Shown here piece by piece: positions 17,682 through 63,609 of a DNA stretch of 64,000 nucleotides. This DNA is from a virus. Lineage: Duplodnaviria > Caudoviricetes. A model generated the notes under the pieces. That model worked only from the letters and a program-made list of their open reading frames with translations, had not been told where the DNA came from and did no database searches. Made by a program: the position numbers and the translations under genes. Position 1 is the first letter of the stretch; each line of letters begins with the position of its first letter. Location of the stretch: positions 64,001-128,000 of the IMG/VR virus record IMGVR_UViG_3300033066_001283. One strand, written 5' to 3'.

Positions 17682-17685
17682 TAAT

Positions 17686-17718
17686 AAAAATAGAGCAGGA
17701 GGGTTAGTCCTGCTCTAT
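17686..17718 (-). terminator. Intrinsic terminator
   Basis: 11-bp stem ATAGAGCAGGA/TCCTGCTCTAT with a 7-nt loop, followed by a T-run on the minus strand. Confidence 0.7.
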
Positions 17719-17729
17719 CAAAGGAGTAG

Positions 17730-25500: not shown

Positions 25501-28500
25501 ATGGAACTCTCTGTAGAAGCGTACCATATAGTCCAAACTGTCTTCTAAATATATCTGAGGCACCAGTAATAATATTCTGGAGAGACATGGATCCTTCACT
25601 ATGTCCATGGAAATAGTTAAGTCGTAATGGAAGTCCCCCAGGATGTGCCCCTCCTGGCCCCGTAGAGCCCGCTCCACCGGGGTATCCACCCACTTCCCCA
25701 AATAATACGGGGGTACCTCCTCCAGACGTCTGTATGGGCAAACCATAGCCAAATGTGCCATAGCCTAATTCTCCATATTGACCTTGGCTATTTATTTCTA
25801 AGTAGTTTTCATCTCTAAGATTATTCAGTTCTTTTCTATGTTGAGCATGTTGTACATATGGATTGTGAGGAGAATAACTGAATGAATTATCTACTTCTGT
25901 CCAATGTGATTTCCATCTACGATAGAAGTTAGGTCTAACATATTTAACTTTTCCACCATGGATACTTCCACGCGTTCCAATAACCCAGCCACGACCTGAT
26001 CTAACTTCTTCATCGCCATAGAATAGATAATCTTCATATTCGTCATGTGATCTTGGATGGAAATATTGATCTAATCCTGGTAATAATCCTACTAAATATT
26101 TATTTATTTTAGTAATTCCTAATGCATCCTTAACAGTTGCGCCAGCTAGGTTAGCATTAGCTAAAATATTAGCTCCAATATCATCAACACCAGGCATATC
26201 TGATTGATGAGCTAAATGATTAAGTCCTTGATACGCTGCATAAGCTCCAACCAATGGAGCAACTCTCTTACCATAGAATCCTAATAGTGATCTAGCAGCA
26301 GTAATTCTATCTTGTTGTCCTAATCCTATACCAATGTTATTAGCAATCTCTTGGGGCATTTGCATTAGTATGGTTGTAGCCATACTAAACTGCCCAAGAG
26401 GATGATTAGGATCAACTAATGATTGAATATAGTCTCCTAGGCCAAAACCTTTACCATATTGCTCTCTAAGTACCTTAAGTGGGTTCTCAAAGATTTCACC
26501 TAATGATGGTGTTTCATTAGGTATTGCAAAGTGCATAGGTTGATTAAGAACATTCTCAGACATGTCTTGTGGGAACCAAGCACCTTTACCTCCAATCTTT
26601 TCAAGCAATTTAGCATGTTCAGCAATAGTTGTAACTAGTTTAGCTTTTCTATCTTCATACCCTTTTCCTAAGATGGCCATTGACTCTTCTACTGAATATC
26701 TTAATTCATCAGCAATCTTAGCTTTAACCAATGGGTCATTAGTAAGAGATAATAGTTCTTGTGGATCTACTAATGTTCCTAGAACTGCGTTAAGTTTGTT
26801 AAAGTCTACATACTTTCCATTATATACCTGACCTAGGAAGTTTTTAGTTTGTTCAGTACTTAGACCTAACCTAGCAATTGCTTTCCCAATAACAGTATCA
26901 GAATCTAATGACCCTGCAATTCCATCTTGGATTTGCGCCATTATATGTCTTGAACTAGACTCAGCATTTTCAAGTGTTGTGTATGAAGCTTCTGCTACCC
27001 ACTGAGATAGAAGACCTTCCTGAAGCTTTTGGAACATAGGAGAAATTCCAGTTTTGCCTTCAACTTCCTGTCTTAACTCTCCAAAGAATCCATTCTTAAT
27101 TTTGGATGCTTCAGTAATCTGCTCTGGCTCAGAGGCAAAGGATGTAACTGCTCTCCATAGTTTGGAGTTTAATTGGTGCAGAGGTGAATACCATCTATCT
27201 TGATCAGCTCTTCTAGTTGCTGCTTCTAGAAGAGAGAATGGCTCTCCTGGGAATCCAGCATTATCTGGAATACCTGCTACAGCTTTAGCCAAGTCTTTAG
27301 CATTTCCAGCTCTTTCATATACACTATGAAGAAGTCCTCTATAATCCTTCCAAGGATAGTGAGAACTAGTAGCAATAACATTCTCAACCACATTTACATT
27401 ATCTGCTAGGAAATCTCCAATACTCTCACTCGATCTAGATCTTTCAATCATTATTCGATCTAATGCGAGTAGTCTATCACCAGGAGTTATATTAGTATTT
27501 GTTCTTAGAAGATGAGCTAATTGATCTGGATGAATTTTAGTTACATCTAATGCAGCACTCTTACCGTGTGTTAAAGAGTATAAGGGTGAATACTCTTGAA
27601 TCTTAGGCTTACCAATAAATCCTACTGATGGATCATAATCTAGATCCATCCAATTGGGAGATGTTGCATATGCCATTCTTTGAAGATCATTTAAACTACC
27701 TGATCCTGGTTTCCAGTTTTTTCTATACCCTTCTCCCCACTTATCTAAATAATTCTCAATCTCTAAGGATCTTAAGCCTGCCATTCTTTGTATGGCAGCA
27801 CTATTTCTAGATTTATAGGTTGCAATTTTATGCCCTGTATCAATAATAGATTCTGCCTCAGGATCCATAATAAGCAGGTGTTCACCTAAGGCTACACCAT
27901 GACTTTGAACAGAGTTAATAGAATGTTTAAATGCTTTAGAAAGCTCAGCCTGACCTTGAAGGTTACCTAAGTGAATAACGGCTTTATGCTCTGTTTGAGC
28001 AAACTTAAATAATCTTACTGGAACATTAAACTTGTAAGGAATAAGTGGTAACTGTAAATGGCTAAATCCCTTCTCTAATAAATGTCTAGCTGTATTAGAC
28101 ACGTGTGCAGTGGATATAATTCTTCCATCAGCACCTAAAGAATATCCTGAATGTGTAGAGTGGAAAAGATTTACTAATTCATCAACTATAGGCTCATTCC
28201 ACTTATGAACCTTATTCTTATTTTGAGTTCTAGTTTCAGCGAACAAATCCTGGATATTATGCATAACTTCATTATACATACTTGTATACCCACCTTTATA
28301 CCCCATTGTATTAAGATAGGTATCCATTTTACCCTGTAATTTCTTTGAACGCTTTATTTCTCCCCAGGTTAAAGATCTACCAGGAATATTCTTAGACTTA
28401 ATTAGTGCTCTTTCTCTAGCTTCAACAGTTCTAGTCCAGGCATCTTTCAAAGATTGTGCAACCTTCGTATGATTCTGCTTTAAGAAGTGGTCTACTTCTT

Positions 28501-29098
28501 CTTGAGTTGCATTCTTATCTCTTCCTGCAGTTATAAGATTTCTGAATATTTCCTGTTGCTTTCTTTTAAAATCAGCCTGAAATACAATATCAAGTTTCGC
28601 AGCTTTCTTTTCTAATGCTGATAAATATTCTTGGGGGTTGATATGCTCTACCGCTTGCATATCAACAGCACCAATAATTGGAGAGAATGAAGGAATTAAG
28701 CCTTTTAACTTGGAGACAAATTTCTCATGATCTCCAGCCTCATATCCTTCAATTAAAGGAGCCAGTACATCTCTATAAGCTCTAGCTCTTTTCTGGTGTG
28801 TTAAAGTTGTATAAGCAGAAGAGCGTATTTCTTTAGTTGCAGTTCCAAAAAACTGACTAGCTTCAGATGCTGTCTTTTTAAATACTTCTGAGAATTCTGT
28901 ACCTACAACTCCTAGGAGTGAATTGCCTTTCTCAGTAGCTAAGAACTTACCAAATTGAGCAGTTGCAGCTCCACCTATCATTGGTAAAGCTGCAAACCCT
29001 ATACTTACAATCCCTGCAATTTCAGCTGCAGCCCAGGCTTTATGTGTAAAGGTATGTGGGTCATCCTTAGATGAGTAATACCCTCGATCCCATATCAT
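19562..29098 (-). CDS. Giant tape-measure-position virion protein (3178 aa; 2026 aa after splicing three inteins) with a Cas4/RecB-like PD-(D/E)XK nuclease domain
   Basis: Follows the tail chaperones and contains three inteins. Nuclease motifs: FG/SEAH...AEVSI...SGTIDAIV...IFDIKT...DQITAYM. Confidence 0.65.
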   Translation of the reverse strand: MIWDRGYYSSKDDPHTFTHKAWAAAEIAGIVSIGFAALPMIGGAATAQFGKFLATEKGNSLLGVVGTEFSEVFKKTASEASQFFGTATKEIRSSAYTTLTHQKRARAYRDVLAPLIEGYEAGDHEKFVSKLKGLIPSFSPIIGAVDMQAVEHINPQEYLSALEKKAAKLDIVFQADFKRKQQEIFRNLITAGRDKNATQEEVDHFLKQNHTKVAQSLKDAWTRTVEARERALIKSKNIPGRSLTWGEIKRSKKLQGKMDTYLNTMGYKGGYTSMYNEVMHNIQDLFAETRTQNKNKVHKWNEPIVDELVNLFHSTHSGYSLGADGRIISTAHVSNTARHLLEKGFSHLQLPLIPYKFNVPVRLFKFAQTEHKAVIHLGNLQGQAELSKAFKHSINSVQSHGVALGEHLLIMDPEAESIIDTGHKIATYKSRNSAAIQRMAGLRSLEIENYLDKWGEGYRKNWKPGSGSLNDLQRMAYATSPNWMDLDYDPSVGFIGKPKIQEYSPLYSLTHGKSAALDVTKIHPDQLAHLLRTNTNITPGDRLLALDRIMIERSRSSESIGDFLADNVNVVENVIATSSHYPWKDYRGLLHSVYERAGNAKDLAKAVAGIPDNAGFPGEPFSLLEAATRRADQDRWYSPLHQLNSKLWRAVTSFASEPEQITEASKIKNGFFGELRQEVEGKTGISPMFQKLQEGLLSQWVAEASYTTLENAESSSRHIMAQIQDGIAGSLDSDTVIGKAIARLGLSTEQTKNFLGQVYNGKYVDFNKLNAVLGTLVDPQELLSLTNDPLVKAKIADELRYSVEESMAILGKGYEDRKAKLVTTIAEHAKLLEKIGGKGAWFPQDMSENVLNQPMHFAIPNETPSLGEIFENPLKVLREQYGKGFGLGDYIQSLVDPNHPLGQFSMATTILMQMPQEIANNIGIGLGQQDRITAARSLLGFYGKRVAPLVGAYAAYQGLNHLAHQSDMPGVDDIGANILANANLAGATVKDALGITKINKYLVGLLPGLDQYFHPRSHDEYEDYLFYGDEEVRSGRGWVIGTRGSIHGGKVKYVRPNFYRRWKSHWTEVDNSFSYSPHNPYVQHAQHRKELNNLRDENYLEINSQGQYGELGYGTFGYGLPIQTSGGGTPVLFGEVGGYPGGAGSTGPGGAHPGGLPLRLNYFHGHSEGSMSLQNIITGASDIFRRQFGLYGTLLQRVPFFPTEYDSTARQNPNADHNIIRRMFAGDYGEATGPLGEFLRRFVNYRQQPYDAPSNLINDMPSWLPDRFKCITYDTLVEVDGNSFKKAIDLKIGDTIRTHKGNLSPLTSLVLRKMDSGEKLYKIKTTGKQHFTAKLSEEHPLWTPTGWKEIKNINIGDFVGYPIPKIEELVEKESIVDISKYVERFSVTKDYIYPYKTREALYKLVEYMMANDIDYWEKGQCKEVCSTLGIEWDKCLGAKARQSKNSQLQKVSRFVDINSPEWGIFIGYFVAEGSVRGRNIVFGFHEDENSFIEELDQAMFNLWGLRGKIYQYEYCGHGKVVVYSSAIIADFLKNFLVQGPYKKKLVCGVDNWKIALRTFFNGDGCYTIYKNTPHVAAKQPHNMELLYKIWQFALANNIVGSLSKEGISFNSTQAYKFSELIKFDKAGTSQLGKKLNENKWSGHWYFEDGYFYCKLTEKEEVEQEPLVAISIDGDNSFCLPGLATHNTGNAMLRTPAGEHNLPGEAWEREHPYDEPLRVRGSNIGLTEKEIIQKWLNPMQPLEGDSAEDIVNFGCVDIETEILTENGWKKYGEFKVGDKILTLNHDTGLSEWHPVDHINSYSVADEKLVSLESKWHSSLTTKNHKWPILRTYYNNNVFSRETREWSTSEEIGKRNQAIILGAKCGEIPSVRTYSDDFVKLVAWYWTEGSLHGKRAVFIHQSKKVNMPYVLEIRQILTNLFGPESSNMHSNYSSNPPMWREYSTKTDFATFALNVPASEELLKVVPNKIASTDFIKKLTEEQLNIFIETSIKADGKCANQIGQKEEEALEAIELACILLGKRTNLRLGSPWIYRYKGKERICNECILGFHSQSKYAFHKPSENRKTEVEYTGIVWCPTVKNSTWCARRKGKVFYTGNSEAHLKIQRQLRDQGILVGAEVSIFDKEHNISGTIDAIVRGPTGNEIFDIKTQGAKSWGHTPDKYIDQITAYMAITGLKMAHLAFVNRDDMSQVRIEDYPFDPHRWQNILDKVDRARAVMNKLVAQGTVSKYETYDLLSRIEILARVAPKSQEFRDAVQFAEESGGFGGFEKQRFQVALRTAGKLSEDYNLYPNRYSPKLETHSAMILGVNGDGSVTTDIGTFKMAGIKWDNQAFAIKDPETIMKEYGIVVGKKHKMTLLEGQWNPELTNDANLPAIFGSANARLINSDYADRDSEARDPLSGRVLFGEPIFGKIAENLLHRDNMFCIDENTFVQTKFKIKKASEIEIGDEVLTHTGEYKKVLDTRIGKPTNQVYKIMTHGSNIPFYITGNHQVLAANKTVRKTVRIKRKLENHCIPPDSIEFRNVEKLTLGDYLVYKSRNLPNIVPPEVSILDLDPKFKNNDKGIYSGNNIHLRTQKIVITRELARLMGYYAAEGSLKYGRDNKPRGIELGFHIKEVDYHNDVINIANTLGLHVQTKTKGNGIVFGIADIVLSTFVEKYFGTKGNKIAPDEILANKELRAEFIRGLFRGDAVKRRYAYTDITLKAKELITWTRDCLFDLWKIPSNISTFYVGEREYLTLNLGYSEELEEFINCNDEYIEKDFKYAMGKGNNCWRRRVLDGFSLLQIKSIEKVEIENQVVDIEVEDNHTFSTLQYTIHNSNKFLRVRTATEQLERSEAFGSDETSWAHMWDTFGGPTLSAIASKNPFEGALMGAAIAGMFITGSKEYKKWAGIAGAVAGGSLATLKSFYDLVHHDEWVPSRVKKRRMHDEYWDLIKFVKFSTIANAAKKKAKRLEGVDIDQLEDAEKRTTVGLGPWAILALNAEKKAMGTMYAFDPDSGSLDEALSAIPDRHKQLARSVILNGSRREKERFYSLLSNPEKRTLGKFIGVDERDLPIRPRMSKYFQKHFLPGPFWQGWDPSVELDDIEDRAAEMEGQKIDRPSRARTERARDHTKNVMIPRMDRGTGFLIGGRLEAITALAGKNLRVKYDIKASDTNVVNVNMHLFEDQTDQLIAEMKKDAWSS
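20657..21835 (-). mobile_element. Intein 3 (393 aa, LAGLIDADG)
   Basis: DNMF|CIDENTFV...TGNHQV...LMGYYAAEGS...LFRGD...VVDIEVEDNHTF...TIHN|SNKF. Confidence 0.92.
22814..23839 (-). mobile_element. Intein 2 (342 aa, LAGLIDADG, GN terminus)
   Basis: VNFG|CVDIETEIL...TKNHKW...LVAWYWTEGS...IKADG...VWCPTV...FYTGN|SEAH. Confidence 0.92.
24041..25291 (-). mobile_element. Intein 1 (417 aa, LAGLIDADG)
   Basis: PDRFK|CITYDTLV...SEEHPLW...FIGYFVAEGS...FFNGDG...LATHN|TGN; the +1 residue is Thr. Confidence 0.92.
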
Positions 29099-39163: not shown

Positions 39164-39182
39164 CGGTTATATGAAATAGAGG

Positions 39183-39220
39183 AAGAAAATAGGGTGGACC
39201 CCCGTGAGAAAGGTCCACCC
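39183..39220 (-). terminator. Intrinsic terminator after the major capsid gene
   Basis: Stem GGGTGGACC(TTT)/(GGG)GGTCCACCC followed by TATTTTCTT on the minus strand. Confidence 0.8.
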
Positions 39221-39253
39221 ATGTAGGAGGTAGTACTGTTACTGCTTACCCAA

Positions 39254-53958: not shown

Positions 53959-54003
53959 AAGTACACCTCTATTGTAGGAAAGTCCTACCTAACAAGTAGA
54001 GGT

Positions 54004-57000
54004 CTATTTAGAGACAATAGCCTTAAATACTTCTCCTAACTTAGCAAAAGCCTCTTTTAGAATTGGTGAAAGGTGTGATGCTGACTCTACCCCACCAATC
54101 AATCTTCCTTCTACTGCTGCCATTCTTTCAGCGTAACCAGCTTGGTATCTTTCTAATCCAGCTGCAACTATTTTTCTACCATCAATCTCTTCACCACTAT
54201 CTAGAAAGAGTTTTGCAGGATCCATTCCTGCAGCTACTGCTTCTAATAGTGTTTGACCCACATGTTCTACCAGATTATTGACCATTCCTTCATCTAATCC
54301 TTGTTCTACCCACATTCTAGCCATCGGCCTTAACTGATCAATGATGGCTGTGCCTTGGTATCTTCTAATAACTGATTCTGTCTCTTCAGTAATAGCAGTT
54401 TCAGTAGAAGTTAATGATCTTCCTGCCTGAACATCCATCCAGAGTCTACTTTTATGCTTATAATTAATTCCATCTTTACTAAACTCAAAAAGCTTTTCTT
54501 CACGGTGTGCAACCAACCGATTATAGTTCTCAGCAGAAGAATCTTTCATGTAAGCATTGAAAGCCTGTTTGGCTGATTCTGAAGTGCTTGCAATATCTGC
54601 TAAAACATCCATCAAGCCCTTATCTTTAGCTCCACCAATTCCTTGAAAGATAAGATTTTCACTTGATTCAAATGAGAAAGGTAATCCTTGATCTTTAATT
54701 GCACCATTAGTACTTAACCATTTACCTAATTCTTTAGTGAAAGAGTAATGTTCTCCCTCATACTCTATTCCAGTTTCCGCTTTAGTGGGCATTTGAAGCG
54801 TTCTTCTATGCTTAGCCTCCCAAGATGAGGATACACCAGAAGAGACGCCTAGAAAGCCCTCTGAGGCGTCAAAAACCCTATTTACAGAAGACTCACCATA
54901 GTGTTTATAGATTGAACTGGCCAACTCTGGCTGAAAATCCTCCATATCTGTTAAAACTAATCTCGCTTTGACGAGTGGGCTATTAGTAAGCTGCTTCATA
55001 GTCTTCATAGTAGCACTCTGATTATTGATTGTTAAGTAGTCACCAATAAATGGTTTCTCACCATGAAGGGTGCCTAATAATCCAATTCCAAACCTAAGTC
55101 CTTCCTTATCTAAATTTCGCATCATTAAGGTTCCAACTAGAACTTTATCTAAATCCTTATCACTATTAAGCTCATTAACTGCCCCAAGTGCCAAACTAAT
55201 GTTCTCATCCCCATAAACTCCATAATTTTGCTGAAGATCTAATAATCGGTAATGCCTAAAACGCATAACATTAGTCTCAGGTGTAATAGCTAATCCACCA
55301 TCAATTTGGGCTACAACATCACTAATTCCTATTGCACCTATTGTTCGTTTTACTTCACCCATAGCCTCTCTATATACATAAGCTCTATCAGCATAGTCAG
55401 CCATACCCATAATGTATGCAATGTATTCCCGATCATTAGGATTCGCCTTTAATGTATTTCTTAGTGTGGCTGGATCAGTCCCCATAGCTGTAGCTGCTTT
55501 AATTAAAATATTATTGTGCTCGAAAATGTAACTAGCAGTAATATTTTCACTTTCACCAAACAATCTATTTGACTCAAGACCGATGCCTTTCTTAGTGAAT
55601 AATGAACCAATGATTTCTGGTAGGTACTGTTCCGGTTGATCTTCTACAACTTCCCCAAACTCATTTAACCTTCTTCTAATTGGTAGGTAGATGCCGTGTT
55701 GTATATTTTTAAATTTTGCATTAGTTGCTTTTCCAGTAGGATCTCTGAAAGTAACTAATTTACCTTCTACCCCGTCAATAGTGTGGAGCTCAAGGAAACT
55801 GAAACGCTCATTTATGTTCTTTCTAGTTTTAGTAAACTGTTTGTAGAATTCAAGTGCTCGTGCAGATGCTTCATGAACTGGGGTTCTAACATCTTTAGTA
55901 TCCCCATAACTTCTTTTGAAAAACATCTCTTCTGGGCGGAAAGCTCCAATCAACTTTCTAGCAAGTTGTTCCCTTGGAAGAATAGCTTCGTTAGCAATAA
56001 CAGCTGCCTGTACCTCTAATGGCATTTGCTCAAAATACTTTCGTTGGCTGGTGCTTTTACCAAATACCTCATCTAATGCATAATCATGAGCAACCATAGC
56101 TTGTAGCTGATGGTACATGGGTGATGAAGCTGTTCCTTTCTGGTTAAGACCAAGATTTTCAATAGCCATCGCCACAAGCCCTTTATCACGAAGTGGATCA
56201 AATAAAGCAAATGCCCCAGTTAAAGCATTATCATCCTCCATCAATTGTGCATACTTATCTGGGTTATCTCTTGCTAACCTGGCTAGAAAATCTTTGAAAG
56301 CAATTAAGTTGGTAACATTTACCTGGTTAGTTCCGAGGCCTACTACTGTATCTCTAGCTCCAATCTCCCACATCTTTGTGAAAGCCTTAACCTGGTTCTC
56401 TTTAGTACTGGTAAAATAATATTCCAGATCTTTTGAAATACCTTTAAACACTGGGTGGTTAGGTCCAACCTCTTTTATTCCCCGAAGAATCTTGTGTGGA
56501 TCTTGCTTATCATAGTGTATAACGTAGGTTAAGTTTGGTGAGTGTGCTGGGAACTTGGTAACAAATCCTCCAAGGCTAATATTACCATTACCCACCCTCT
56601 GCTTCATCTCTTCAGTTTTTCGCTGAAGCCATGCGTTAAAATTAGCTTCAAATGTTGTAACAGATACTTGGTCACCATCAAAGTCACGGTAGAGTAGGTA
56701 AGAAGCTTTTGGGTTCATCATAACAACCTCTTGCCCTGTATTCTCATTCACCTGAATCCTAATATGTATCTCAGTTCCAGGTGGAATAGGAAGCTTCTCA
56801 GTATCGGCCCAGCTTCTTCCCCTCAGTTTTGGGTCCATAGGGAGCGTAGGATCCCAAAATAGCTTCATCATTCTAGTGTGAACATTATCAGCACCAAACG
56901 CTTTACTTAAAAAGTGTTTAACTGCAGCAGGACCTTCTATTCTACTTTGATCATTTCCTAGCTTTGTTAAATTCCTTCCAGCTATATTCCTTAACTGGGC

Positions 57001-57213
57001 TAGAATCGCAGTGTTATCATCAGCAGAATTAATTCCCGCCTTCAACTGTCTCCAAGCGAAGTCAAAGCCAGCTGCAAAAATCTCCCGTTGATTCTGAACA
57101 AAGGGTATTGCTTCAAATTCGCCCCTTATCTCATCAGCAGAAAATAATCTCCCTGAAGAATCTTTAAACCATGTATTAGGTTTAAATGTATACCTTCTAG
57201 CAATCCAGCTCAT
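54004..57213 (-). CDS. Putative phage double-psi beta-barrel RNA polymerase (beta'-like catalytic motif)
   Basis: VVMMNPKASYLLYRDFDGDQVSV (DFDGD at aa 177-181, nt 56671-56685) parallels the beta' pattern xxLNPxxxxxYNADFDGDxMxV. Possible beta-like LHGEK at aa 716-720. Confidence 0.65.
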   Translation of the reverse strand: MSWIARRYTFKPNTWFKDSSGRLFSADEIRGEFEAIPFVQNQREIFAAGFDFAWRQLKAGINSADDNTAILAQLRNIAGRNLTKLGNDQSRIEGPAAVKHFLSKAFGADNVHTRMMKLFWDPTLPMDPKLRGRSWADTEKLPIPPGTEIHIRIQVNENTGQEVVMMNPKASYLLYRDFDGDQVSVTTFEANFNAWLQRKTEEMKQRVGNGNISLGGFVTKFPAHSPNLTYVIHYDKQDPHKILRGIKEVGPNHPVFKGISKDLEYYFTSTKENQVKAFTKMWEIGARDTVVGLGTNQVNVTNLIAFKDFLARLARDNPDKYAQLMEDDNALTGAFALFDPLRDKGLVAMAIENLGLNQKGTASSPMYHQLQAMVAHDYALDEVFGKSTSQRKYFEQMPLEVQAAVIANEAILPREQLARKLIGAFRPEEMFFKRSYGDTKDVRTPVHEASARALEFYKQFTKTRKNINERFSFLELHTIDGVEGKLVTFRDPTGKATNAKFKNIQHGIYLPIRRRLNEFGEVVEDQPEQYLPEIIGSLFTKKGIGLESNRLFGESENITASYIFEHNNILIKAATAMGTDPATLRNTLKANPNDREYIAYIMGMADYADRAYVYREAMGEVKRTIGAIGISDVVAQIDGGLAITPETNVMRFRHYRLLDLQQNYGVYGDENISLALGAVNELNSDKDLDKVLVGTLMMRNLDKEGLRFGIGLLGTLHGEKPFIGDYLTINNQSATMKTMKQLTNSPLVKARLVLTDMEDFQPELASSIYKHYGESSVNRVFDASEGFLGVSSGVSSSWEAKHRRTLQMPTKAETGIEYEGEHYSFTKELGKWLSTNGAIKDQGLPFSFESSENLIFQGIGGAKDKGLMDVLADIASTSESAKQAFNAYMKDSSAENYNRLVAHREEKLFEFSKDGINYKHKSRLWMDVQAGRSLTSTETAITEETESVIRRYQGTAIIDQLRPMARMWVEQGLDEGMVNNLVEHVGQTLLEAVAAGMDPAKLFLDSGEEIDGRKIVAAGLERYQAGYAERMAAVEGRLIGGVESASHLSPILKEAFAKLGEVFKAIVSK

Positions 57214-57330: not shown

Positions 57331-58448
57331 GAATTAGACCCACCCCCCATTGAATTAATCCTTCTTAATACTCCAACCATAGTAAGTTGGAAACTTACCC
57401 TTCTTCAATTGATACAAGCCATTTCTTGGAATATTAAATTGTTTAGCTAACTGAGAGATATTATTAGTTACATGCTCATTACCGTTGGGATCAATGAATG
57501 TGGGGTGTATTGTCTCTCCATTCTTTATTCTTACAGAGTTTTCAGCATTTATTTTCGCTATTCTTTCACTCTTTTCAGATGAGTAAATCTTTTCTTTTGC
57601 TGCTTTACGAGGTTTAGGTTGCCATATCTTTTCTCTTTCACCTGGAGGTAAAGAATATCCCTTGTAGGTTTTGCGCGTCCCATTAATAACTCTTCTTAGT
57701 CTTTTTTGCTCTAAATTATTCTCTTCACAAAATAAACTTAAATTTCTAACTGTAAAAGTGGTATTCTGAAAACAAAGTTGATACTCTTTTGAGATTGGTT
57801 TATTTTCCCTGTATTCTCTGGAAATATTTTCTTTTTTATATTTCTCTCGACTCTTAATAACCTTATCAGAAATAGTATACCGTCTGCCGTAATCTTTACT
57901 TCTCTCTAAAGATTCTAATCTTTTAGCATTTCGATATTCAATCCTTTCAGAGTCACTCATACTAGATAGCTTCTTGCGTTTTTCTTGCCCTTCCTTAACC
58001 TTAGTACTAAATTCAGTTTCAGAAATTCTAATTTTATAATTAGGTAGTAGTCCTGGCTTTAGTAGTATATTATACATTTTGTCTTTAGTACATAGACTTA
58101 AGTAATATTCTTCTTTTTCGTTCAGCTGCTCAATCGAGCACTCCTCAATAATTCCCGGTTTAAAGTATTCTTTATCTTTATTCCATGCGTTCTGAAGATA
58201 TGCATTAGAGTGTACCCCTTTCAATAAATCACATCTGTGATCTGTAAATCGTCTAGGTATATGTTTAGATTGTCCTATATACATTTTATCATTTAATGTG
58301 TTGTATAGACAATAGATGCCAGAAACATTTGGAACTTCCTTCCATTCGTATAATGAGATATTCATATAAAAGAATGTAGATCATCCCCTAAAAATCAAGG
58401 CATGTCTGAGTTGGTAATAGACGGGGGCATAGTCGGAATTAGACCCAC
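57331..58448 (+). repeat. 13-bp direct repeat GAATTAGACCCAC flanking the GIY-YIG gene
   Basis: Exact copies at 57331-57343 and 58436-58448. Confidence 0.75.
57355..58365 (-). CDS. Free-standing GIY-YIG homing endonuclease
   Basis: SGIYCLYNTLNDKMYIGQS...RF..H...H.N..LQNAW..., LNEKE, YNI; two NUMOD1-like C-terminal HTH units. Confidence 0.88.
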   Translation of the reverse strand: MNISLYEWKEVPNVSGIYCLYNTLNDKMYIGQSKHIPRRFTDHRCDLLKGVHSNAYLQNAWNKDKEYFKPGIIEECSIEQLNEKEEYYLSLCTKDKMYNILLKPGLLPNYKIRISETEFSTKVKEGQEKRKKLSSMSDSERIEYRNAKRLESLERSKDYGRRYTISDKVIKSREKYKKENISREYRENKPISKEYQLCFQNTTFTVRNLSLFCEENNLEQKRLRRVINGTRKTYKGYSLPPGEREKIWQPKPRKAAKEKIYSSEKSERIAKINAENSVRIKNGETIHPTFIDPNGNEHVTNNISQLAKQFNIPRNGLYQLKKGKFPTYYGWSIKKD

Positions 58449-58538
58449 GAGGGTCGTTTTTATGGGCAATCATGCCTATAGGGAATCATCCCAGTGATGC
58501 TGTGCTCAACAGCTTTTACCTTTGTAGGAGGTAATATC

Positions 58539-58877
58539 GTGTTTAAAATGACAGTAGCCACTATGGCAGCGATCATTCTGCGTAGTAAGGACATGGCAAG
58601 TCCTTCCATCGCTCTCCGTTCAGGCGAGCTTGTCCTCATTGATGGAGATATCAATGACGAGAACCTTCTCATCGTGGATGCGGTGGACACCTCGTTCTGG
58701 GAACAGTGGTTGCCCAGTAATATCCCGTTCCGACATACCTTTGGAACGTTCGAGTCTCAAATGAAGCGGTACGTGAGCCGCTTCAATCGAACTGGTGTAA
58801 AGAATGTCCTCATGGCATTGTCGTATCATGAGGTGCAGTTGAAGAGGAGGTATCCAGAAGAACTGTTTAAAGACTGA
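58539..58877 (+). CDS. Early-region hypothetical protein
   Basis: Start reassigned to GTG 58539 behind AGGAGGT. Confidence 0.65.
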   Translation: MFKMTVATMAAIILRSKDMASPSIALRSGELVLIDGDINDENLLIVDAVDTSFWEQWLPSNIPFRHTFGTFESQMKRYVSRFNRTGVKNVLMALSYHEVQLKRRYPEELFKD

Positions 58878-58944
58878 GCCGAAAGCCAGGGATTTCTCCC
58901 TGGTTATACATAGGGTATGCTCCTATGTACTGATGAGGCAGCAC
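58878..58944 (+). ncRNA. Hammerhead ribozyme, type II (copy 1)
   Basis: GCC-GAAA-stem III GCCAGGGA/TTTC/TCCCTGGT-T-A^-stem I TACATAGG/GTATGCT/CCTATGTA-CTGATGA-GGC. Loop I TGCT can pair with the 3' AGCA. Predicted cleavage after A58906. Confidence 0.9.
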
Positions 58945-58981
58945 TCTCACAACGACCTTTACCTTTGTAGGAGGTAATATT

Positions 58982-59296
58982 ATGCTATTGACATTCACCA
59001 TTCCATCTACTGGGCACATACGCTCAGTGGATCTGAGGGACGAGCTTGTGCATGAGTACAAGCTTTCAATCCAAGAGATGAGCAGGTACTTTAGCCCTGC
59101 TCTTGACAGACAGCGGAGGGCAGCACACAATAAGGTGGCTGCTTCTCTTGTCCCCATTCTCAAGGAAGAACTTCCTGAGGAGGATGATGCTTCTCTCACT
59201 CAAGAGGCCCGTAGGATAGTGACGGGTTTTTTAGAAGAATCCCTGACTGGCCGGAGTATGGTCAGGGAGCTCCTGGACTCCGGTTTACTGCGTTAG
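58982..59296 (+). CDS. Early-region hypothetical protein
   Basis: 104 aa, SD AGGAGGT. Confidence 0.7.
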   Translation: MLLTFTIPSTGHIRSVDLRDELVHEYKLSIQEMSRYFSPALDRQRRAAHNKVAASLVPILKEELPEEDDASLTQEARRIVTGFLEESLTGRSMVRELLDSGLLR

Positions 59297-59308
59297 TTTG
59301 AGTATTGC

Positions 59309-59357
59309 GGTGAACAGTGCCTAACTGTATGGTGTGTAAATCACCTATCTGTAGGAG
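59309..59357 (+). ncRNA. Unclassified two-hairpin intergenic motif (copy A)
   Basis: GGTGA-ACAG/TGCCTAA/CTGT-AT-GGTG/TGTAAAT/CACC-TATC-TGTAGGAG. Confidence 0.55.
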
Positions 59358-59368
59358 GTAAGTAAATC

Positions 59369-59635
59369 ATGCGTTCAATGAACAAAGGAAGTTGGGTGTA
59401 TTTACCAACTCTTATCACTCTTTCGATGCTCCAGGAGCAGAAGGACAGACACTACACCTTCCACCCAGAGGTCTTCTTCGAGGACCTCAATCCTGGGTGG
59501 ACTGAGCAGGTTCTCGGGTTCATGGCGAAGAACCCAACGTGCTCGATGAGCATCGATGCACGGTATCATCAGGACAGCTACTCTGATGGGGAAACCCTTA
59601 GAGGAGAAGGCATGGTGTATTGTCAGACTAGATAA
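59369..59635 (+). CDS. Early-region hypothetical protein
   Basis: 88 aa, SD AGGAGGT. Confidence 0.7.
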   Translation: MRSMNKGSWVYLPTLITLSMLQEQKDRHYTFHPEVFFEDLNPGWTEQVLGFMAKNPTCSMSIDARYHQDSYSDGETLRGEGMVYCQTR

Positions 59636-59636
59636 T

Positions 59637-59703
59637 GCCGAAAGCCAGGGATTTCTCCCTGGTTATACATAGGGTATGCTCCTATGTACTGATGAGGCAG
59701 CAC
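59637..59703 (+). ncRNA. Hammerhead ribozyme, type II (copy 2)
   Basis: Part of a 77-bp exact repeat of copy 1 (58878-58954 = 59637-59713). Stem II can extend to TGCC/GGCA. Predicted cleavage after A59665. Confidence 0.9.
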
Positions 59704-59737
59704 TCTCACAACGTTTGTTACCGTAGGAGGTAATATA

Positions 59738-59899
59738 GTGAATAGAAGAACAAAACTCATCATCGTTAGTGCTATCATAGTAGCACTATGCCTGCTGGAT
59801 GCAGCAGGTGTCTGCATCACTGACCCTCGCTTTGAGGCGGGGAAGCAGGATAGGGCTCAAGCAGCCCGCATTCTTGAGGAAGCAAGCACAACACATTGA
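59738..59899 (+). CDS. Small membrane protein (53 aa)
   Basis: Not in the track; GTG behind AGGAGGT; MNRRTKLIIVSAIIVALCLLDAAGVCITDPRFEAGKQDRAQAARILEEASTTH*. Confidence 0.65.
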   Translation: MNRRTKLIIVSAIIVALCLLDAAGVCITDPRFEAGKQDRAQAARILEEASTTH

Positions 59900-59907
59900 T
59901 TGCTTGT

Positions 59908-59956
59908 GGTGAACAGTGCCTAACTGCATGGTGTGTAAATCACCTAATTGTAGGAG
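59908..59956 (+). ncRNA. Unclassified two-hairpin intergenic motif (copy B)
   Basis: Near-identical to copy A; CAG/TGCCTAA/CTG, GGTG/CACC, TGTAGGAG. Confidence 0.55.
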
Positions 59957-59963
59957 TAATAAA

Positions 59964-60407
59964 ATGAAAACATTAGTAGTAGCAGTGTGGGCGTGGCTTT
60001 CGGCCAAGTACCAAGGTCTTGTCTATGGCAGGACTGAGAAGTGTGAGTGGTGCGGGGAGCCGTGCGTTCCCAACGCTCACCATATGTGTGTGCACTGCCT
60101 TGAACAGGAGTTTGGCACTCCTGAAGACTGGCAGGCAGAGTGGGAAGAGGACTCGCTTCGACAGAAGATCGAGGACGTTCTGGATCCTGAAGAGTTGGAG
60201 CATTCTAATACTCAGGATCAAGGAGAGGGATGGGGAGTCCACACCTGCTGCAAGTGTGGTGGAAAGACTCATCCTGATGGTCCTGCATCTGTGTGGGATC
60301 CTTTCACCGATGAGACTTGGTGTGAGGATTGCTGGTATAAGGAGAATCCTCCCAGCGAACAGCTCATAAAGAGTCTGCCGAAGTGTGAGGTAGACTTCGA
60401 AGACTAA
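59964..60407 (+). CDS. Acidic protein with two C4 zinc-finger-like units
   Basis: Start reassigned to ATG 59964 behind AGGAG; CEWC...CVHC and CCKC...CEDC. Confidence 0.7.
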   Translation: MKTLVVAVWAWLSAKYQGLVYGRTEKCEWCGEPCVPNAHHMCVHCLEQEFGTPEDWQAEWEEDSLRQKIEDVLDPEELEHSNTQDQGEGWGVHTCCKCGGKTHPDGPASVWDPFTDETWCEDCWYKENPPSEQLIKSLPKCEVDFED

Positions 60408-60416
60408 TGAGTATAT

Positions 60417-60463
60417 GGTGGACGTGCCTAACGTAGCAGAAGGATTATCTGCATTTGTAGGAG
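60417..60463 (+). ncRNA. Unclassified two-hairpin intergenic motif (copy C, divergent)
   Basis: GGTGG-ACG/TGCCTAA/CGT-A-GCAGA/AGGATTA/TCTGC-ATT-TGTAGGAG; both stems differ from A/B yet still pair. Confidence 0.55.
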
Positions 60464-60473
60464 TAGTAAGAAC

Positions 60474-61832
60474 ATGAAACTGTTAAGTTTAGAACAAGTG
60501 TGGAAGATGCGGACGAAGCATCAGTTGGAGTGGTTGAACTCAATCCCTGACCTGAAGACGAAGAAGTGTCAGCGTGTTGTTGTAAGAGGAAACAAGACGA
60601 TTTCAATCGTCGTGACCATGGGATTCCGAGATTCGGAATCAAAGGTCCGTCTATTCAAGATCGAACACAGATTTAAGATTGATGGTACCTACCTTGGCTC
60701 GTACTTTGAAGGAATAGATCCTTCTGCCTTCACGCGTCAGGTTCTGAGGCTGGTGAGATTATCACTCCCAGGGTTGCACTCAAAAGTGCAACATGGGTAT
60801 GTTATGGATAAACTCTGCCACCCATTCGATCTAGCGGATTTTTCCAAGGAAATTGGTATCAGCGCCTGCCCGTGGGGTGTTAAGACCGTTCTGCTGTGGC
60901 AGGATCTTGGATTCTATACTAGGTATAGTGTCAATGATCTCTACCTTCCAGTTAAACATGGATTGTTACGCAATCTAAAACGAGAAGATCATGGAGGATT
61001 AGAGTACATGATGCGAAAGGGAGGCAAGTATATTCGCTCCCTAGGAAAACAAGGAAGTATTATGGTATGGAGAGCTGTAACAGCAATGGATGCTGCTAGA
61101 ATCTCTCCCGGCCTCCCCTTCCGAGTGGCCACAATGTGGTTAACTGTAGTAAGCCATAGACGGAACGAAGAATCTCTCCCAATATGGGCAAGGTTTATCT
61201 TCCTTCACTGGGAGCAGAACTACAGAGCCATTCTTCGTAGAACGAAGAATGCAGCTGGAGTGCATCGCTCACGAGATATAGATGCAGTGCTCAATGATCT
61301 GTATGATTACTTGGGTGCACATTACGAAGAAGCTCTACCAGATGCTGCATTCGAGGTCTTGTTCCAAAGATCAGAAGCGTGGCATCGCGTGTTAAGAGAG
61401 AATCGGCGTGCTCTTAATGATATAGACTATGGTCCAAATCTTGAGAAGGACACTGCTCTTCCTTGGAATGGATTGGAAGGAACATTCTCTATTGGCGAAT
61501 TCGAGTTTACTCGAATTACAACGTATGGAGATCTCTTGGATGAGGGCGACATTATGCGGCATTGTGTAGCTACATATGTCAGGTATTGTCTAACAGGCAA
61601 TACATCCATTTGGAGTATGAGACTCAAGGTACTAAAGGGCAAGAAATGTATGCGTGTTGCCACACTTGAAGTAGCGCATGCAGGAGTGTCTGAGTTGCGA
61701 CAGGCTCGAACTGCCTGTAATGGCTCACTAAACGACGAACAAAGAGCCGCAACCAGAGCCTTTGTATCCTGGCTTAACAATCAACCACTTAGTGTGGGTG
61801 AGAGACTTAGAGCATTGAATGAGGTAAACTAA
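60474..61832 (+). CDS. PcfJ-like domain protein
   Basis: C-terminal ITTYGDLLDEGDIMRHCVATY...GNTSIWSMR...VATLEV...QAR..CN matches the PcfJ-like pattern. Confidence 0.75.
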   Translation: MKLLSLEQVWKMRTKHQLEWLNSIPDLKTKKCQRVVVRGNKTISIVVTMGFRDSESKVRLFKIEHRFKIDGTYLGSYFEGIDPSAFTRQVLRLVRLSLPGLHSKVQHGYVMDKLCHPFDLADFSKEIGISACPWGVKTVLLWQDLGFYTRYSVNDLYLPVKHGLLRNLKREDHGGLEYMMRKGGKYIRSLGKQGSIMVWRAVTAMDAARISPGLPFRVATMWLTVVSHRRNEESLPIWARFIFLHWEQNYRAILRRTKNAAGVHRSRDIDAVLNDLYDYLGAHYEEALPDAAFEVLFQRSEAWHRVLRENRRALNDIDYGPNLEKDTALPWNGLEGTFSIGEFEFTRITTYGDLLDEGDIMRHCVATYVRYCLTGNTSIWSMRLKVLKGKKCMRVATLEVAHAGVSELRQARTACNGSLNDEQRAATRAFVSWLNNQPLSVGERLRALNEVN

Positions 61833-62161
61833 TGAACAAGAATAAGAAGCTCCAGATGGAGCGGATCATCGCTGAGGTACGAGCAAACAAAGTGCTCGTT
61901 ATTGATGTCAAGGACTTTGAAGCCTATCGAGGTGTTGTCCGCCTTGGTACCCTCAAGGCGAGGGAAGCAAAGAGGGAGTGGAAAGCTCCCAAGTTGATTG
62001 TCAAAGCTCAGACAGCTGATCCTGAAGTTCTCAGGAAGTTGGCTGACAGAGGAGCTAGCAGAATTATCTGCTCAGTTCCCAAGAACAAGAAACGAGAGAT
62101 CATCCAGTCTCTCGTCAAGAACCCTGCACGATGTTGGGTGCAGGTAATGGAGGTAAAATAA
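61832..62161 (+). CDS. Basic hypothetical protein
   Basis: 109 aa, TAATG coupling, SD GAGGT. Confidence 0.65.
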   Translation: MNKNKKLQMERIIAEVRANKVLVIDVKDFEAYRGVVRLGTLKAREAKREWKAPKLIVKAQTADPEVLRKLADRGASRIICSVPKNKKREIIQSLVKNPARCWVQVMEVK

Positions 62162-62427
62162 TGCCACTACTCATTCAAGTGTTCAGGAAGGGGCAGAATG
62201 AGCCCCTTGCCTTGCAGGATGTTGATATGGAGGTGAGAAATCACTTCCAATATCACAAGGACCAAGAGACAAAGTTTATTTGTAGTTGGCCCTCAACTCT
62301 CACATATAGGCTTGCATTCAAGCCTATGGATGAGGTACTATCTGATCTAAGAGCAGACGGATTAGTCACAGTCGCTGAGGTATGTGAGTATATCAGCGAT
62401 AATTATGACATCAGAGTATGGAGGTAA
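62161..62427 (+). CDS. Hypothetical protein
   Basis: Start reassigned to ATG 62161 behind GGAGGT. Confidence 0.65.
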   Translation: MPLLIQVFRKGQNEPLALQDVDMEVRNHFQYHKDQETKFICSWPSTLTYRLAFKPMDEVLSDLRADGLVTVAEVCEYISDNYDIRVWR

Positions 62428-62430
62428 ATC

Positions 62431-62748
62431 ATGTGGAAATTGATCAGGATTGAGCTAGGTAGTCGAAAGACTGTCCTGCTCAAGAAGCAGTTCGCTACTG
62501 AGAGAGATGCTCAGAAGCATGCCAATCGACTCAATGGTATGTATGCCCATCGCTATGGTGATGGGTTCTACCATGTACAACTCCTATCCCCTTCTCAGTG
62601 GAGAGAGCCACAAGTGGTGAAGACCAAGTGGTTCATCGGAGATAAGACAGGGCAGATAATCGCCTCATTTGATCAGGAAGAGAAAGCTACCCAGTTCTTA
62701 GATGATAACTGGGAACAGGACTGGACCAAATGGCAGGGCCCAGCCTAG
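62431..62748 (+). CDS. Hypothetical protein
   Basis: 105 aa, SD GGAGGT. Confidence 0.65.
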   Translation: MWKLIRIELGSRKTVLLKKQFATERDAQKHANRLNGMYAHRYGDGFYHVQLLSPSQWREPQVVKTKWFIGDKTGQIIASFDQEEKATQFLDDNWEQDWTKWQGPA

Positions 62749-62849
62749 CATCACTGTTCTATTCCCCTACTGGATTAGCCTCCGGTAGGGGAACGCCTGC
62801 CGTGGATTGCCGCCTAGGTGGTGATACCAAGTTGTAGGAGATTACAAAT

Positions 62850-63089
62850 ATGAAACAGCCTATCGTAATTACAGCAGAGCGCAAAGCCGAACTGAAGAGG
62901 ATTGTCAAGCGGGCAATCGAGACCGGAGCTACGAGCTTCACCGTGAACAGCCCAGCAGAATGGACGTTCTGCGTGCGTGCTATCCAACACGAGCGGTCTA
63001 AGGGGCAGTACATCCCCAATAAGCAGATCCTTACCCGGACACAGCTCCGGGATGACGCGCTCGAAGACTTCGATTACAATCCAAGCTAG
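62850..63089 (+). CDS. Hypothetical protein
   Basis: 79 aa, SD AGGAG. Confidence 0.65.
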   Translation: MKQPIVITAERKAELKRIVKRAIETGATSFTVNSPAEWTFCVRAIQHERSKGQYIPNKQILTRTQLRDDALEDFDYNPS

Positions 63090-63098
63090 TGCGTGTTC

Positions 63099-63131
63099 GG
63101 GGCCAACCTAACGGTTGGCCCCCCTTTTCTT
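63099..63131 (+). terminator. Intrinsic terminator
   Basis: 10-bp stem GGGGCCAACC-TAAC-GGTTGGCCCC followed by CCTTTTCTT. Confidence 0.8.
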
Positions 63132-63261
63132 GTGGCCTAACAAACCTCCGGTAGACTGCCTGTTTGGTAGTTTTGGGGCTAATTACGCTCTTGTGTGGTG
63201 TTGCCACATTGGGCACGGCCTGAGGTTTGGGGTGTTAGTGCCCCCATTGTAGGAAGGTAAT

Positions 63262-63609
63262 ATGCTGAAAATTATCAAGAATCGACGTGTGCGTACAGCA
63301 CCAGTGACCAAGCCCGTAAAGCTTACCACTACAGACGAGTTTGATGCTCTAATGAGCAGACTTGAGGAGCTTTCTAAGCAACTTGTTATGCCTGCTTCCC
63401 CGAAGAACCTCACTCCTGAAGATATCAGGGAAGGGACTAAGAAGATGATGATCGGAACTCTGTTCATTACAGAGATGGAAGGCAATACGCAGGAAGAGCA
63501 GATTGCCATGTTCATCAGAATTCGCTCTCAGCTAGTTCCGTATGAGCTTGACTGGTTCAGGCTCGGAGCTGAGGCGATCATGGAATACAGACGGCTATGT
63601 TCGGCCTAG
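63262..63609 (+). CDS. Hypothetical protein
   Basis: 115 aa, SD AGGAAGGT. Confidence 0.65.
   Translation: MLKIIKNRRVRTAPVTKPVKLTTTDEFDALMSRLEELSKQLVMPASPKNLTPEDIREGTKKMMIGTLFITEMEGNTQEEQIAMFIRIRSQLVPYELDWFRLGAEAIMEYRRLCSA

Follow-up and report, generated by a model that had tools for sequence, protein, structure and literature searches.

The first genes of this large phage are separated by a repeated element of ~50 bases with two hairpins, which raises the question of whether it works as RNA (a ribozyme, a translational switch or a protein-recognised site) or as DNA that is read by a polymerase or bound by a regulator. The initial annotation had reported three copies (M1, M2 and M3, Table 1) on the + strand of the window, that is, the whole stretch of 64,000 nt that was analysed, and all of them were re-found, each filling the space that separates a stop codon from the following ribosome-binding site. 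M1 and M2 share 92% identity across 53 nt; M3 keeps their 5′ half and the final TGTAGGAG and has a different second hairpin. The core 9-mer GTGCCTAAC has 3 occurrences in the entire 150,263-bp contig, all of them inside these copies.

Table 1. Positions of the element, its parts and the neighbouring features in the window
Feature	Coordinates	Strand	Remarks
Terminator-like GC-rich hairpin	58442-58461	+	GACCC/GGGTC, then T run; immediately upstream of P0
P0	58461-58492	+	Early operon head; matches TRYGG-N7-TGCCTA
Hammerhead type II-like element	58877-58947	+	g1-g2 gap; 27.7 bits, E 0.0066
Second, identical hammerhead type II-like element	59636-59706	+	g3-g4 gap
M1	59305-59357	+	Between g2 (stop 59296) and g3 (ATG 59369)
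M1, TRYGG box	59306-59310	+
M1, hairpin 1	59314-59328	+
M1, hairpin 2	59331-59345	+
M1, generic SD context	59350-59357	+
M2	59904-59956	+	Between g4 (stop 59897-59899) and g5 (ATG 59964)
M3	60413-60463	+	Between g5 (stop 60405-60407) and g6 (ATG 60474)
M3, TATGG box		+
M3, hairpin 1	60422-60434	+
M3, hairpin 2	60436-60452	+
M3, SD context	60456-60463	+

The motif had also been placed outside the known ribozyme families. In agreement, cmscan against Rfam 15 matched nothing at the three copies: the whole window gave 0 matches at the gathering score, and positions 58400-60600 at E<=10 returned two hammerhead-like elements (27.7 and 26.0 bits, below the Rfam gathering score of 37) and one chance miRNA hit, none of them overlapping the motif. 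The motif is a repeated, strand-specific, structured element absent from Rfam. The final TGTAGGAG, previously counted as one of its components, has to be taken out: 10 copies are present in the window compared to 2.3 expected, including those after both hammerheads and before g1. This sequence is the generic ribosome-binding context of the phage and not part of the motif.

Hairpin 1, drawn in the initial annotation with an invariant loop TGCCTAA, reads better in M1 as the stem ACAGT/ACTGT closing a 5-nt loop GCCTA. It has 4 pairs in M2, one fewer than in M1, and in M3 it reads ACGT/ACGT, which means that one whole base pair is deleted. Hairpin 2 of M1 and M2 is GGTG/CACC with the loop TGTAAAT, and that of M3 is GCAGA/TCTGC; the alternative pairing GGTGA/TCACC that had been proposed is available only in M1 and M2. 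When the isolated 37-38-nt cores were folded with DNA parameters, exactly both hairpins were predicted (z -2.8), whereas RNA folds including the flanks were no better than shuffles (z about 0). Random 24-mers form hairpins of at least 4 pairs in ~20% of cases and of 5 pairs in ~4.5%, and at such a chance rate hairpin 2 proves little from this genome alone.

A diverged homologue (L091a, at L091:4409-4473) was found in a distant phage whose polymerase is 30% identical. It is ~80% identical to the motif over 40 nt and keeps both hairpins, with the TRYGG box missing at the usual spacing. By eye, 7 substitutions separate it from M1; 4/7 belong to two compensatory pairs, and the stems stay intact in all cases. 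The earlier claim that the stems vary and yet stay paired is thus borne out by L091a and not by M1 and M2, where the difference is a lost pair rather than covariation. Since these four changes in L091a are compensatory and none of the seven is disruptive, the two-hairpin structure is probably real, as judged from four sequences with little statistical power. In the A3 alignment (M1, M2, M3 and L091a) both partners are changed in 2 of the 8 pairs, and 83% of the cells are paired; its covariation score was reached by 36/500 shuffles, with M3 out of register in the MAFFT alignment. A covariance model search of 249 kb of relatives found no further members.

We compared the 5′ half of the motif across the phage and its relatives. 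A pattern built from M1-M3 alone, T[AG][TC]GG-N6-7-TGCCTA, was used to scan both strands of 150 kb and matched exactly 5 sites, namely M1, M2, M3, P0 at the head of the early operon and X (L082:10150), all of them intergenic, on the + strand and upstream of + module genes. In a position-weight-matrix scan the five sites scored 31.6-23.8 and the next best 16.7. The features expected of a generic phage-polymerase promoter (a conserved sequence of ~20 bp that lies only upstream of genes, in sense orientation, with a copy at the operon head) were found in 5/5 sites. Sites P0 and X lack the M-type hairpin 1 and keep the linear boxes: X has no local hairpin, and in P0 the boxes pair as the two arms of one 8-pair hairpin, which is followed by a 4-pair hairpin, both with the loop ATCA. 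The P0 core is 100% conserved in L076, L077, L078 and L081, the DNA upstream of it is unrelated, and P0 marks the 5′ edge of a block conserved among relatives with a polymerase only 49-91% identical. The sequence of the hairpin that precedes P0 is not conserved in the relatives; the arrangement of a hairpin and a T run is.

The same boxes, with the same spacing, precede the first early gene or another gene in four distant relatives whose polymerases are 27-34% identical (L085 head, L086 head, L087:2304 and L090 head). The L090 head matches the 5′ half of M2 at 22/28 positions, including ~15 nt of unpaired sequence 5′ of hairpin 1. Hairpin 2 is absent from the L090, L086 and L087 copies, which directly abut the SD. 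Further covariation of hairpin 1 is seen in the L090 and L086 heads and in L087:2304, and stems of 5-7 pairs enclosing GCC have a chance probability of 0.026-0.002 each. The two boxes base-pair with each other in P0 and in the L085 and L088 heads, so that the shared linear pattern may partly reflect structure. Head elements are usually placed right after terminator-like GC hairpins and T runs, with 15-45 nt left before the start codon, which leaves little other room for a promoter of gene 1. Across the phage family, conservation is limited to the ~20-28-nt 5′ half.

Exact-pattern scans of IMG/VR with the core plus SD or with the 5′ half gave chance matches only, each of which was checked, and two scans of metagenomes, one for the motif and one for the P0 core, found nothing in collections that may leave out records very close to this genome. 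Scanning with the hairpin-2 pattern gave 11 hits in viral genomes, only the one on L091's own contig being genuine, and 55 in prokaryote genomes, all due to chance. A hammerhead-based scan recovered unrelated phages only. Against deposited phages, neither blastn of the early region nor tblastn of the 1069-aa protein described below found a match; a protein-anchored IMG/VR search with g6 gave no relatives, and g2 and g4 had no exact counterpart on record.

The phage encodes two divergent predicted single-chain two-barrel RNA polymerases of 858 and 1069 aa. The 858-aa protein carries the invariant DxDGD motif, and in its structural model (pLDDT 81.5) residues 354-801 align only to beta/Rpb2 subunits, with Z values of 8-9; in the 1069-aa protein a YRDFDGDQ motif is conserved. 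Searching the PDB with both sequences gave no match, the 858-aa protein being identified by fold comparison only, and a profile comparison of the two detected no similarity between them. Pfam and PDB sequence matches revealed no T7-like polymerase among the giant virion-module proteins. As for host-type promoters, a search of positions 58200-63400 for the sigma-70 consensus (-35/-10, 16-18 nt spacing) found no + strand site at P0, M1, M2 or M3 and none ahead of g1, and the number of sigma-70-like sites in this region (7) was that of shuffles (6.9). Other candidate signals were rejected: a sigma-54 promoter (GG-N10-GC) by the spacing of 7-8 nt found here, ECF-type sigma promoters also by spacing, and an extended -10 reading of TGTGTAAAT by a misfit at the key -11 and -7 positions. 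Small ORFs starting at the ATGG box were discarded too, as M1, M2, L085 and L086 yield none or 3-4 codons; such ORFs comprise 11 codons at P0 and 20 at M3, where the ORF ends in an ATGA overlap with g6.

We tentatively favour the reading that the element is a phage-polymerase promoter combined with an mRNA leader, which fits best because the operon-head boxes follow terminator-like hairpins, the phage has polymerases of its own and no sigma-70 promoter was found. A DNA hairpin promoter was among the options first raised for this motif; the promoter part of that idea suits the added evidence best, and the N4 hairpin geometry is not matched. According to our proposal, the element would be a repeated cis-regulatory cassette of the early operon whose 5′ half (a T-rich/TRYGG box, 6-7 nt and a WGCCTA box, the latter usually in or beside a short hairpin) would be a compact promoter used by one of the phage single-chain two-barrel RNA polymerases. 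Transcription would start separately for each of g3, g5 and g6, and likewise for g1 from the related P0, and the new mRNA would have a 5′ leader made up of hairpin 2 and the extended Shine-Dalgarno. Cassettes and the two hammerheads combined would give each of the first six genes its own 5′ end. Being repeated, the cassettes would moreover serve as joints at which recombination shuffles the small early genes, and natural variants do swap genes at them. That a polymerase reads the element on DNA, which of the two it is, and where its RNA starts are steps that we infer.

Two phage systems resemble such a promoter. Thermus phage P23-45 has a virion (gp96) and a non-virion (gp64) two-barrel polymerase, and its pre-early genes are preceded by conserved promoter motifs at high density (PMC10770324). 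Likewise, two divergent two-barrel polymerase genes are present here, and short conserved motifs are repeated at close intervals ahead of the small genes that open the early region, which is also punctuated by conserved non-canonical signals; the non-virion polymerase gene would lie a few kb downstream. However, there is no known sequence similarity to the P23-45 motifs, and the boxes are tied here to covarying hairpins. The early promoters of coliphage N4 are hairpins with conserved and covarying positions; each has a 5-7-pair stem and a 3-nt loop, is centred at -11 and carries conserved loop and stem bases (PMC4496689). Like N4 P1-P3, the element is present in a few copies grouped where the early region begins, with a conserved GC-containing centre and flanking inverted repeats that pair despite variable positions. 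In contrast to N4, the M1-M3 stems have 4-5 pairs with loops of 5-7 nt and the relatives' hairpins 4-7 pairs with loops of 4-8 nt, copy X lacks a local hairpin, and the polymerases recognised here are two-barrel whereas the N4 virion polymerase is T7-like.

Several observations speak against the promoter. Compensatory changes in hairpins are what an RNA element predicts; a double-stranded DNA promoter needs none unless it is read as a hairpin or transcription starts upstream of hairpin 1, and stems of 4-7 pairs with loops of 4-8 nt are unfavourable for extrusion from duplex DNA. L091a has both hairpins but no TRYGG box at the usual spacing, and the boxes self-pair in P0 and in the L085 and L088 heads. 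In addition, L078, L076 and L090 carry AT-rich regions with sigma-70-like hexamers upstream of the head element, where transcription could start and run through it. Finally, equivalent slots are taken alternately by the element and by self-cleaving hammerheads, suggesting that such slots serve RNA processing.

These points lead to a second reading, which we regard as possible if somewhat doubtful: a protein-recognised RNA site in a polycistronic early transcript, whose hairpins bind a phage or host factor for processing, stability or translation. Such a factor might be an endoribonuclease specific for hairpins, a protein with a stabilising or translational operator function, or one that mediates antitermination, and the site would set mRNA ends or control the downstream cistron, a protein doing the job that self-cleavage does at the hammerheads. 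The compensatory, never disruptive differences between M1 and L091a in both stems, the recurrence of hairpin 1 covariation in three relatives, the improbable GCC-enclosing stems, the conserved loop sequences and the way in which the element fills the stop-to-SD gap are all in line with it. The early mRNA of T7 contains RNase III sites ahead of the first gene and between genes, irregular duplexes of ~20 pairs that are cut by the host enzyme. Since such sites also precede the first gene in T7, a copy at the operon head is compatible with processing, and the likeness extends to structured sites that give each cistron its own ends; the two 4-5-pair hairpins with conserved loops found here are, in contrast, too short for RNase III. 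Against the RNA site, terminator-like hairpins and T runs before the heads would stop the upstream transcripts needed for processing, the linear boxes are kept in X and P0 in the absence of an M-type hairpin 1, and conservation between M2 and the L090 head extends to the ~15 unpaired nt that precede hairpin 1. Within their context the stems have low thermodynamic stability, and a candidate binding protein was not found.

It is improbable that the element is a DNA site that does not directly start transcription, either an operator of a phage regulator or a duplicated linker kept as a recombination joint. Inverted repeats are typical of operators, and in the natural variants L078 and L081 genes are swapped or deleted at repeated intergenic elements. 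The PeSL cassettes of T4-type phages (PMC2839356, PMC4122927) offer a precedent for shuffling linkers (PMC4122927): they too are repeated regulatory cassettes between small early ORFs, and the close genomes L078 and L081 likewise differ by insertions, deletions and swaps jointed in repeats. PeSLs differ in consisting of a sigma-70 early promoter and a terminator stem-loop; M1-M3 show neither a sigma-70 consensus nor a U-tract terminator. Moreover, identity of ~80% over 40 nt retained in L091, at a polymerase identity of 30%, argues for direct selection on the sequence. The stem of M1 differs from that of M3 by a whole base pair, which would shift the half-sites of a dimeric operator, and a passive site accounts poorly for the strictly gene-sense orientation and the tight placement before ribosome-binding sites.

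Very unlikely, too, is a translational riboregulator in which CCUA of loop 1 pairs with UAGG of the SD region and hides the ribosome-binding site until it is opened. The two sequences are complementary in M1-M3, and the C to U change in the L091a loop still allows pairing with its CCUAGGAGG through G-U. However, TGTAGGAG/TAGGAGG is generic in the phage and its relatives and also stands at motif-free starts, so the complementarity may be incidental; it amounts to 4 pairs with no compensatory change. UAGG is missing from X (AAGGTG) and from L087 and L088 (AAGGAG), and CCTA and TAGG are adjacent in P0 and in the L085 head and cannot fold back. The pseudoknot put forward by the annotation therefore comes down to a generic TAGGAGG and one G-U-compatible change, with no covariation support.

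A new class of small self-cleaving ribozyme is hardly credible, even though the motif shares its slots with hammerhead-like elements, has conserved loops and covarying stems, matches no known family and recalls the topology of pistol (RF02679; PMC4604425) in its size of ~50 nt, its first loop that could pair 3′ of the second hairpin and its phage-like context near other ribozymes: no Rfam ribozyme model, pistol included, matches even at E<=10, only the 5′ half is conserved family-wide, hairpin 2 is dispensable in relatives and is wholly replaced, loop included, in M3, copy X forms no hairpin locally, a multi-helix junction is lacking, the putative pseudoknot amounts to 4 pairs with a generic SD, and in the scans of viral and prokaryote genome collections, which recovered only L091, the motif is confined to one small phage group. 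It is equally little to be expected that a new self-cleaving RNA class, or a signal for a new hairpin-specific phage RNase, replaces hammerheads in cutting the early transcript into single-gene mRNAs. A phage-specific transcription start or an RNA site recognised by a protein describes the element better than a new ribozyme does.

The phage group is uncultured and undescribed, with no close relative among deposited phage genomes. If the element is a promoter, it would provide the first recognition sequence for this lineage of two-barrel polymerases and an example of hairpin-associated promoters outside the T7-like N4 enzyme, and it might serve as an orthogonal transcription system. If it is an RNA site, a single short operon would rely on both hammerheads and this element, two different devices, to provide every gene with a separate mRNA end, and would be an unusually clear natural experiment on the reasons for early transcript processing in phages. 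Either way, the cassettes mark exchange joints of small early genes among related phages.

The window derives from a linear IMG/VR viral contig of 150,263 bp (bases 64001-128000; completeness estimate about 80%). Minus-strand genes make up about 110 kb (GC about 0.36) and include those for the portal and for proteins of 1473, 2710 and 3178 aa; a plus-strand module with a GC of 0.44-0.48 adjoins them at window position 58366. The portal shares only 24-29% identity with its counterparts in jumbo phages of Bacillus, Moorella and Acinetobacter, and the early region gave no nucleotide match among deposited phages. The plus-strand module opens with small, closely spaced genes in the order P0 region, g1, hammerhead-like element, g2, M1, g3, identical hammerhead-like element, g4, M2, g5, M3 and g6, where g1-g6 are the first early genes, M1-M3 the three motif copies and P0 a related element at the operon head. 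A GIY-YIG/HNH homing endonuclease gene, missing in relatives L076 and L078, lies between a polymerase gene and the operon. The 3178-aa protein carries LAGLIDADG and intein-splicing or Hint signatures, in the relative L077 a 784-aa protein gave an intein match, and the tRNA-rich part of the plus-strand module in L086 contains a group I intron whose score of 53.4 bits exceeds the gathering score. Several tRNA genes are present in L082 (the phage's own contig beyond the window), L084, L086 and L087.

Locations of the elements, genes and rearranged segments
Feature	Location	Strand
M1 (before g3)	window 59305-59357	+
M2 (before g5)	window 59904-59956	+
M3 (before g6)	window 60413-60463	+
P0	window 58461-58492	+
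X, further-downstream copy of the 5′ half	L082:10150	+
Whole-element homologue	L091:4409-4473	
g1 leader hairpin chain	window 58461-58513	
CCTCCGGTAG sites	window 62779-62788, 63145-63154; L085:3330, 3345; L086:5441, 5780; L087:2973, 3407, 4775; L090:7938	+
AGTTGA-n-ATGG, intergenic examples	L085:3403, 7415, 7476, 8549, 10004, 14267, 16417	
CTAC-YCCT-type box, hairpin and T run	window 17682-17729, 39164-39253, 53959-54003 (read in the direction of the minus-strand genes)	
858-aa polymerase gene	L082:769-3345 (genome 128769-131345)	
1069-aa polymerase gene	window 54004-57213	-
Homing endonuclease gene	window 57355-58365	
3178-aa protein gene	window 19562-29098	-
784-aa protein gene	L077:8835-11189	
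Group I intron	L086:14029-14200	
Segment lacking g2-M1-g3	L081:505-600 (vs window 58878-59713)	
Reordered early segment	L078:1-3740 (vs window 58460-63260)	- (L078)

The three copies of a two-hairpin motif described in the initial annotation proved to be real. Across the whole contig their 9-nt core is confined to these three places, M1-M3, always on the plus strand. Hairpin 1 is best read as five pairs closing a GCCTA pentaloop, with exactly one pair fewer in M3; M1 and M2 have the same hairpin 2, in place of which M3 carries an unrelated hairpin of five pairs with a different 7-nt loop. In isolation and under DNA parameters, the 37-38-nt cores of M1 and M3 folded into precisely these two hairpins (z about -2.8). 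RNA parameters gave two hairpins for M3 and, in a slightly shifted register, for the homologue in the distant relative L091, and an alternative long-range pairing for M1; with natural flanks, RNA fold energies equalled those of shuffles. Since about 20% of random 24-mers can form a hairpin of at least four pairs, this genome alone makes only a weak case for hairpin 2. Rfam 15 returned no match at the gathering score in the whole window and nothing overlapping the motif even at E≤10; the flanking hammerheads, with 27.7 and 26.0 bits, fell short of their gathering score (37). The sequence TGTAGGAG, formerly assigned to the motif, does not belong to it; it is over-represented across the window (10 copies, 2.3 expected), and is also found 3′ of both hammerheads and 5′ of g1. 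Minus-strand matches of its reverse complement are partly explained by a box of CTAC-YCCT type that several minus-strand (late) genes have in common on their 5′ side, with a GC hairpin and T run after it; this is a possible late promoter or terminator motif.

A pattern derived from M1-M3 alone, T[AG][TC]GG-N6-7-TGCCTA, matched five sites in the 150-kb genome against about 0.6 expected by our own estimate. All five (M1, M2, M3, P0 and X) lie between genes on the plus strand, each with a gene downstream. Conservation of the operon begins with P0; four relatives share the P0 core unaltered, and their DNA 5′ of it is unrelated. The same boxes at the same spacing lie directly 5′ of the first early gene in L085, L086 and L090 and before a gene in L087; the L090 head agrees with the M2 5′ half at 22 of 28 positions and then leads directly to the ribosome-binding site, hairpin 2 being absent. 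In M1-M3, L090, L086 and L087 a local hairpin, different in stem sequence each time, carries GCC in its loop (chance probabilities 0.026, 0.007 and 0.002 for 5, 6 and 7 pairs); in P0 and in the L085 and L088 heads box pairs with box, and X is without a local hairpin. A GC-rich hairpin with T run, unrelated in sequence, precedes the head elements of our phage, L076, L085 and L088, and less clearly those of L077 and L078. The family-wide conserved unit is a 20-28-nt two-box sequence just 5′ of ribosome-binding sites, including those at operon heads.

Further sequence features were noted. Several hairpins follow one another in the g1 leader: one of 8 pairs and one of 4, each with an ATCA loop, and then an attenuator-like GCTGT/ACAGC with T run just 5′ of the Shine-Dalgarno. 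A second intergenic 10-mer, CCTCCGGTAG, is family-conserved and always on the plus strand (two copies in the window, 0.04 expected). The motif AGTTGA-n-ATGG occurs at least 13 times before genes in L085, more weakly in L086 and without enrichment in this genome; it is a candidate second promoter class, sharing ATGG with the element studied here.

Distant relatives were reached via the 858-aa protein. In L091, whose polymerase is 30% identical, a homologue of the whole element is likewise flanked by a stop codon and a ribosome-binding site. Seven positions across both hairpins distinguish it from M1. Four of them make up one compensatory exchange in each stem, with A:T becoming T:A in hairpin 1 and G:C becoming T:A in hairpin 2; the remaining three fall in loop 1 or the linker, all stems are intact and the hairpin 2 loop TGTAAAT is the same. 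Pair counting registered both double changes. The two-hairpin structure is likely real on this comparison with one independent full-length homologue, short of statistical establishment because 36 of 500 shuffles reached the score with four sequences, M3 being out of register. A covariance model built from the motif sequences found no members beyond its input in 249 kb of related DNA.

The phage is predicted to encode two single-chain two-barrel RNA polymerases. In the 858-aa family a DxDGD motif (residues 115-119) is invariant, and the only structures with which residues 354-801 of the model (pLDDT 81.5) align are second-largest subunits of multisubunit RNA polymerases, both cellular and viral (Foldseek E about 0.01; VIA Z 8-9); DxDGD is N-terminal to the beta-like part, reversing the usual order of YonO-like enzymes. 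The 1069-aa protein, encoded beside the operon head, has YRDFDGDQ at residue 177, conserved among homologues. No sigma-70-like promoter was found upstream of g1. A two-box unit before ribosome-binding sites, including heads behind terminator-like hairpins, in phages with their own polymerases is a promoter signature, and we tentatively read the element as a phage-specific promoter. One or other of the polymerases would then read it, and hairpin 2 and the Shine-Dalgarno would form the mRNA leader. The pre-early region of P23-45 has a similarly dense arrangement (PMC10770324), and N4 promoters show a likewise covarying inverted-repeat association (PMC4496689), although the geometry here is different.

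An RNA-level site bound by protein, the main rival, is somewhat less probable: it best accounts for the compensatory changes in both stems and for the alternation with hammerheads, whereas the terminator-like hairpins upstream of head elements, the conserved unpaired sequence 5′ of hairpin 1 and the hairpin-less X weaken it. A role solely as operator or linker is unlikely. Nothing specific supports a pseudoknot riboregulator, which is very improbable, or a new ribozyme, the least probable reading.

Close relatives, found via the 1069-aa protein and g5, are nearly identical in early DNA and add no covariation, yet they reveal rearrangements. L081 (Logan SRR8942298) lacks exactly the 759-nt g2-M1-g3 unit between the identical hammerhead repeats, most simply explained by recombination between these 77-nt repeats. 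In L078 the operon begins at g3, M2 precedes a different gene and homology stops right after TGTAGGAG; g3, the hammerhead, g4 and M2 are near-identical in nucleotides, in changed cassette order, despite a 1069-aa polymerase only 49% identical to that of this phage. In combination with the step in GC at 58366, from 0.36 to 0.47, these findings suggest exchange of the early module between lineages. The repeated cassettes evidently double as recombination joints, in the manner of the PeSL cassettes of T4-type phages (PMC2839356, PMC4122927).
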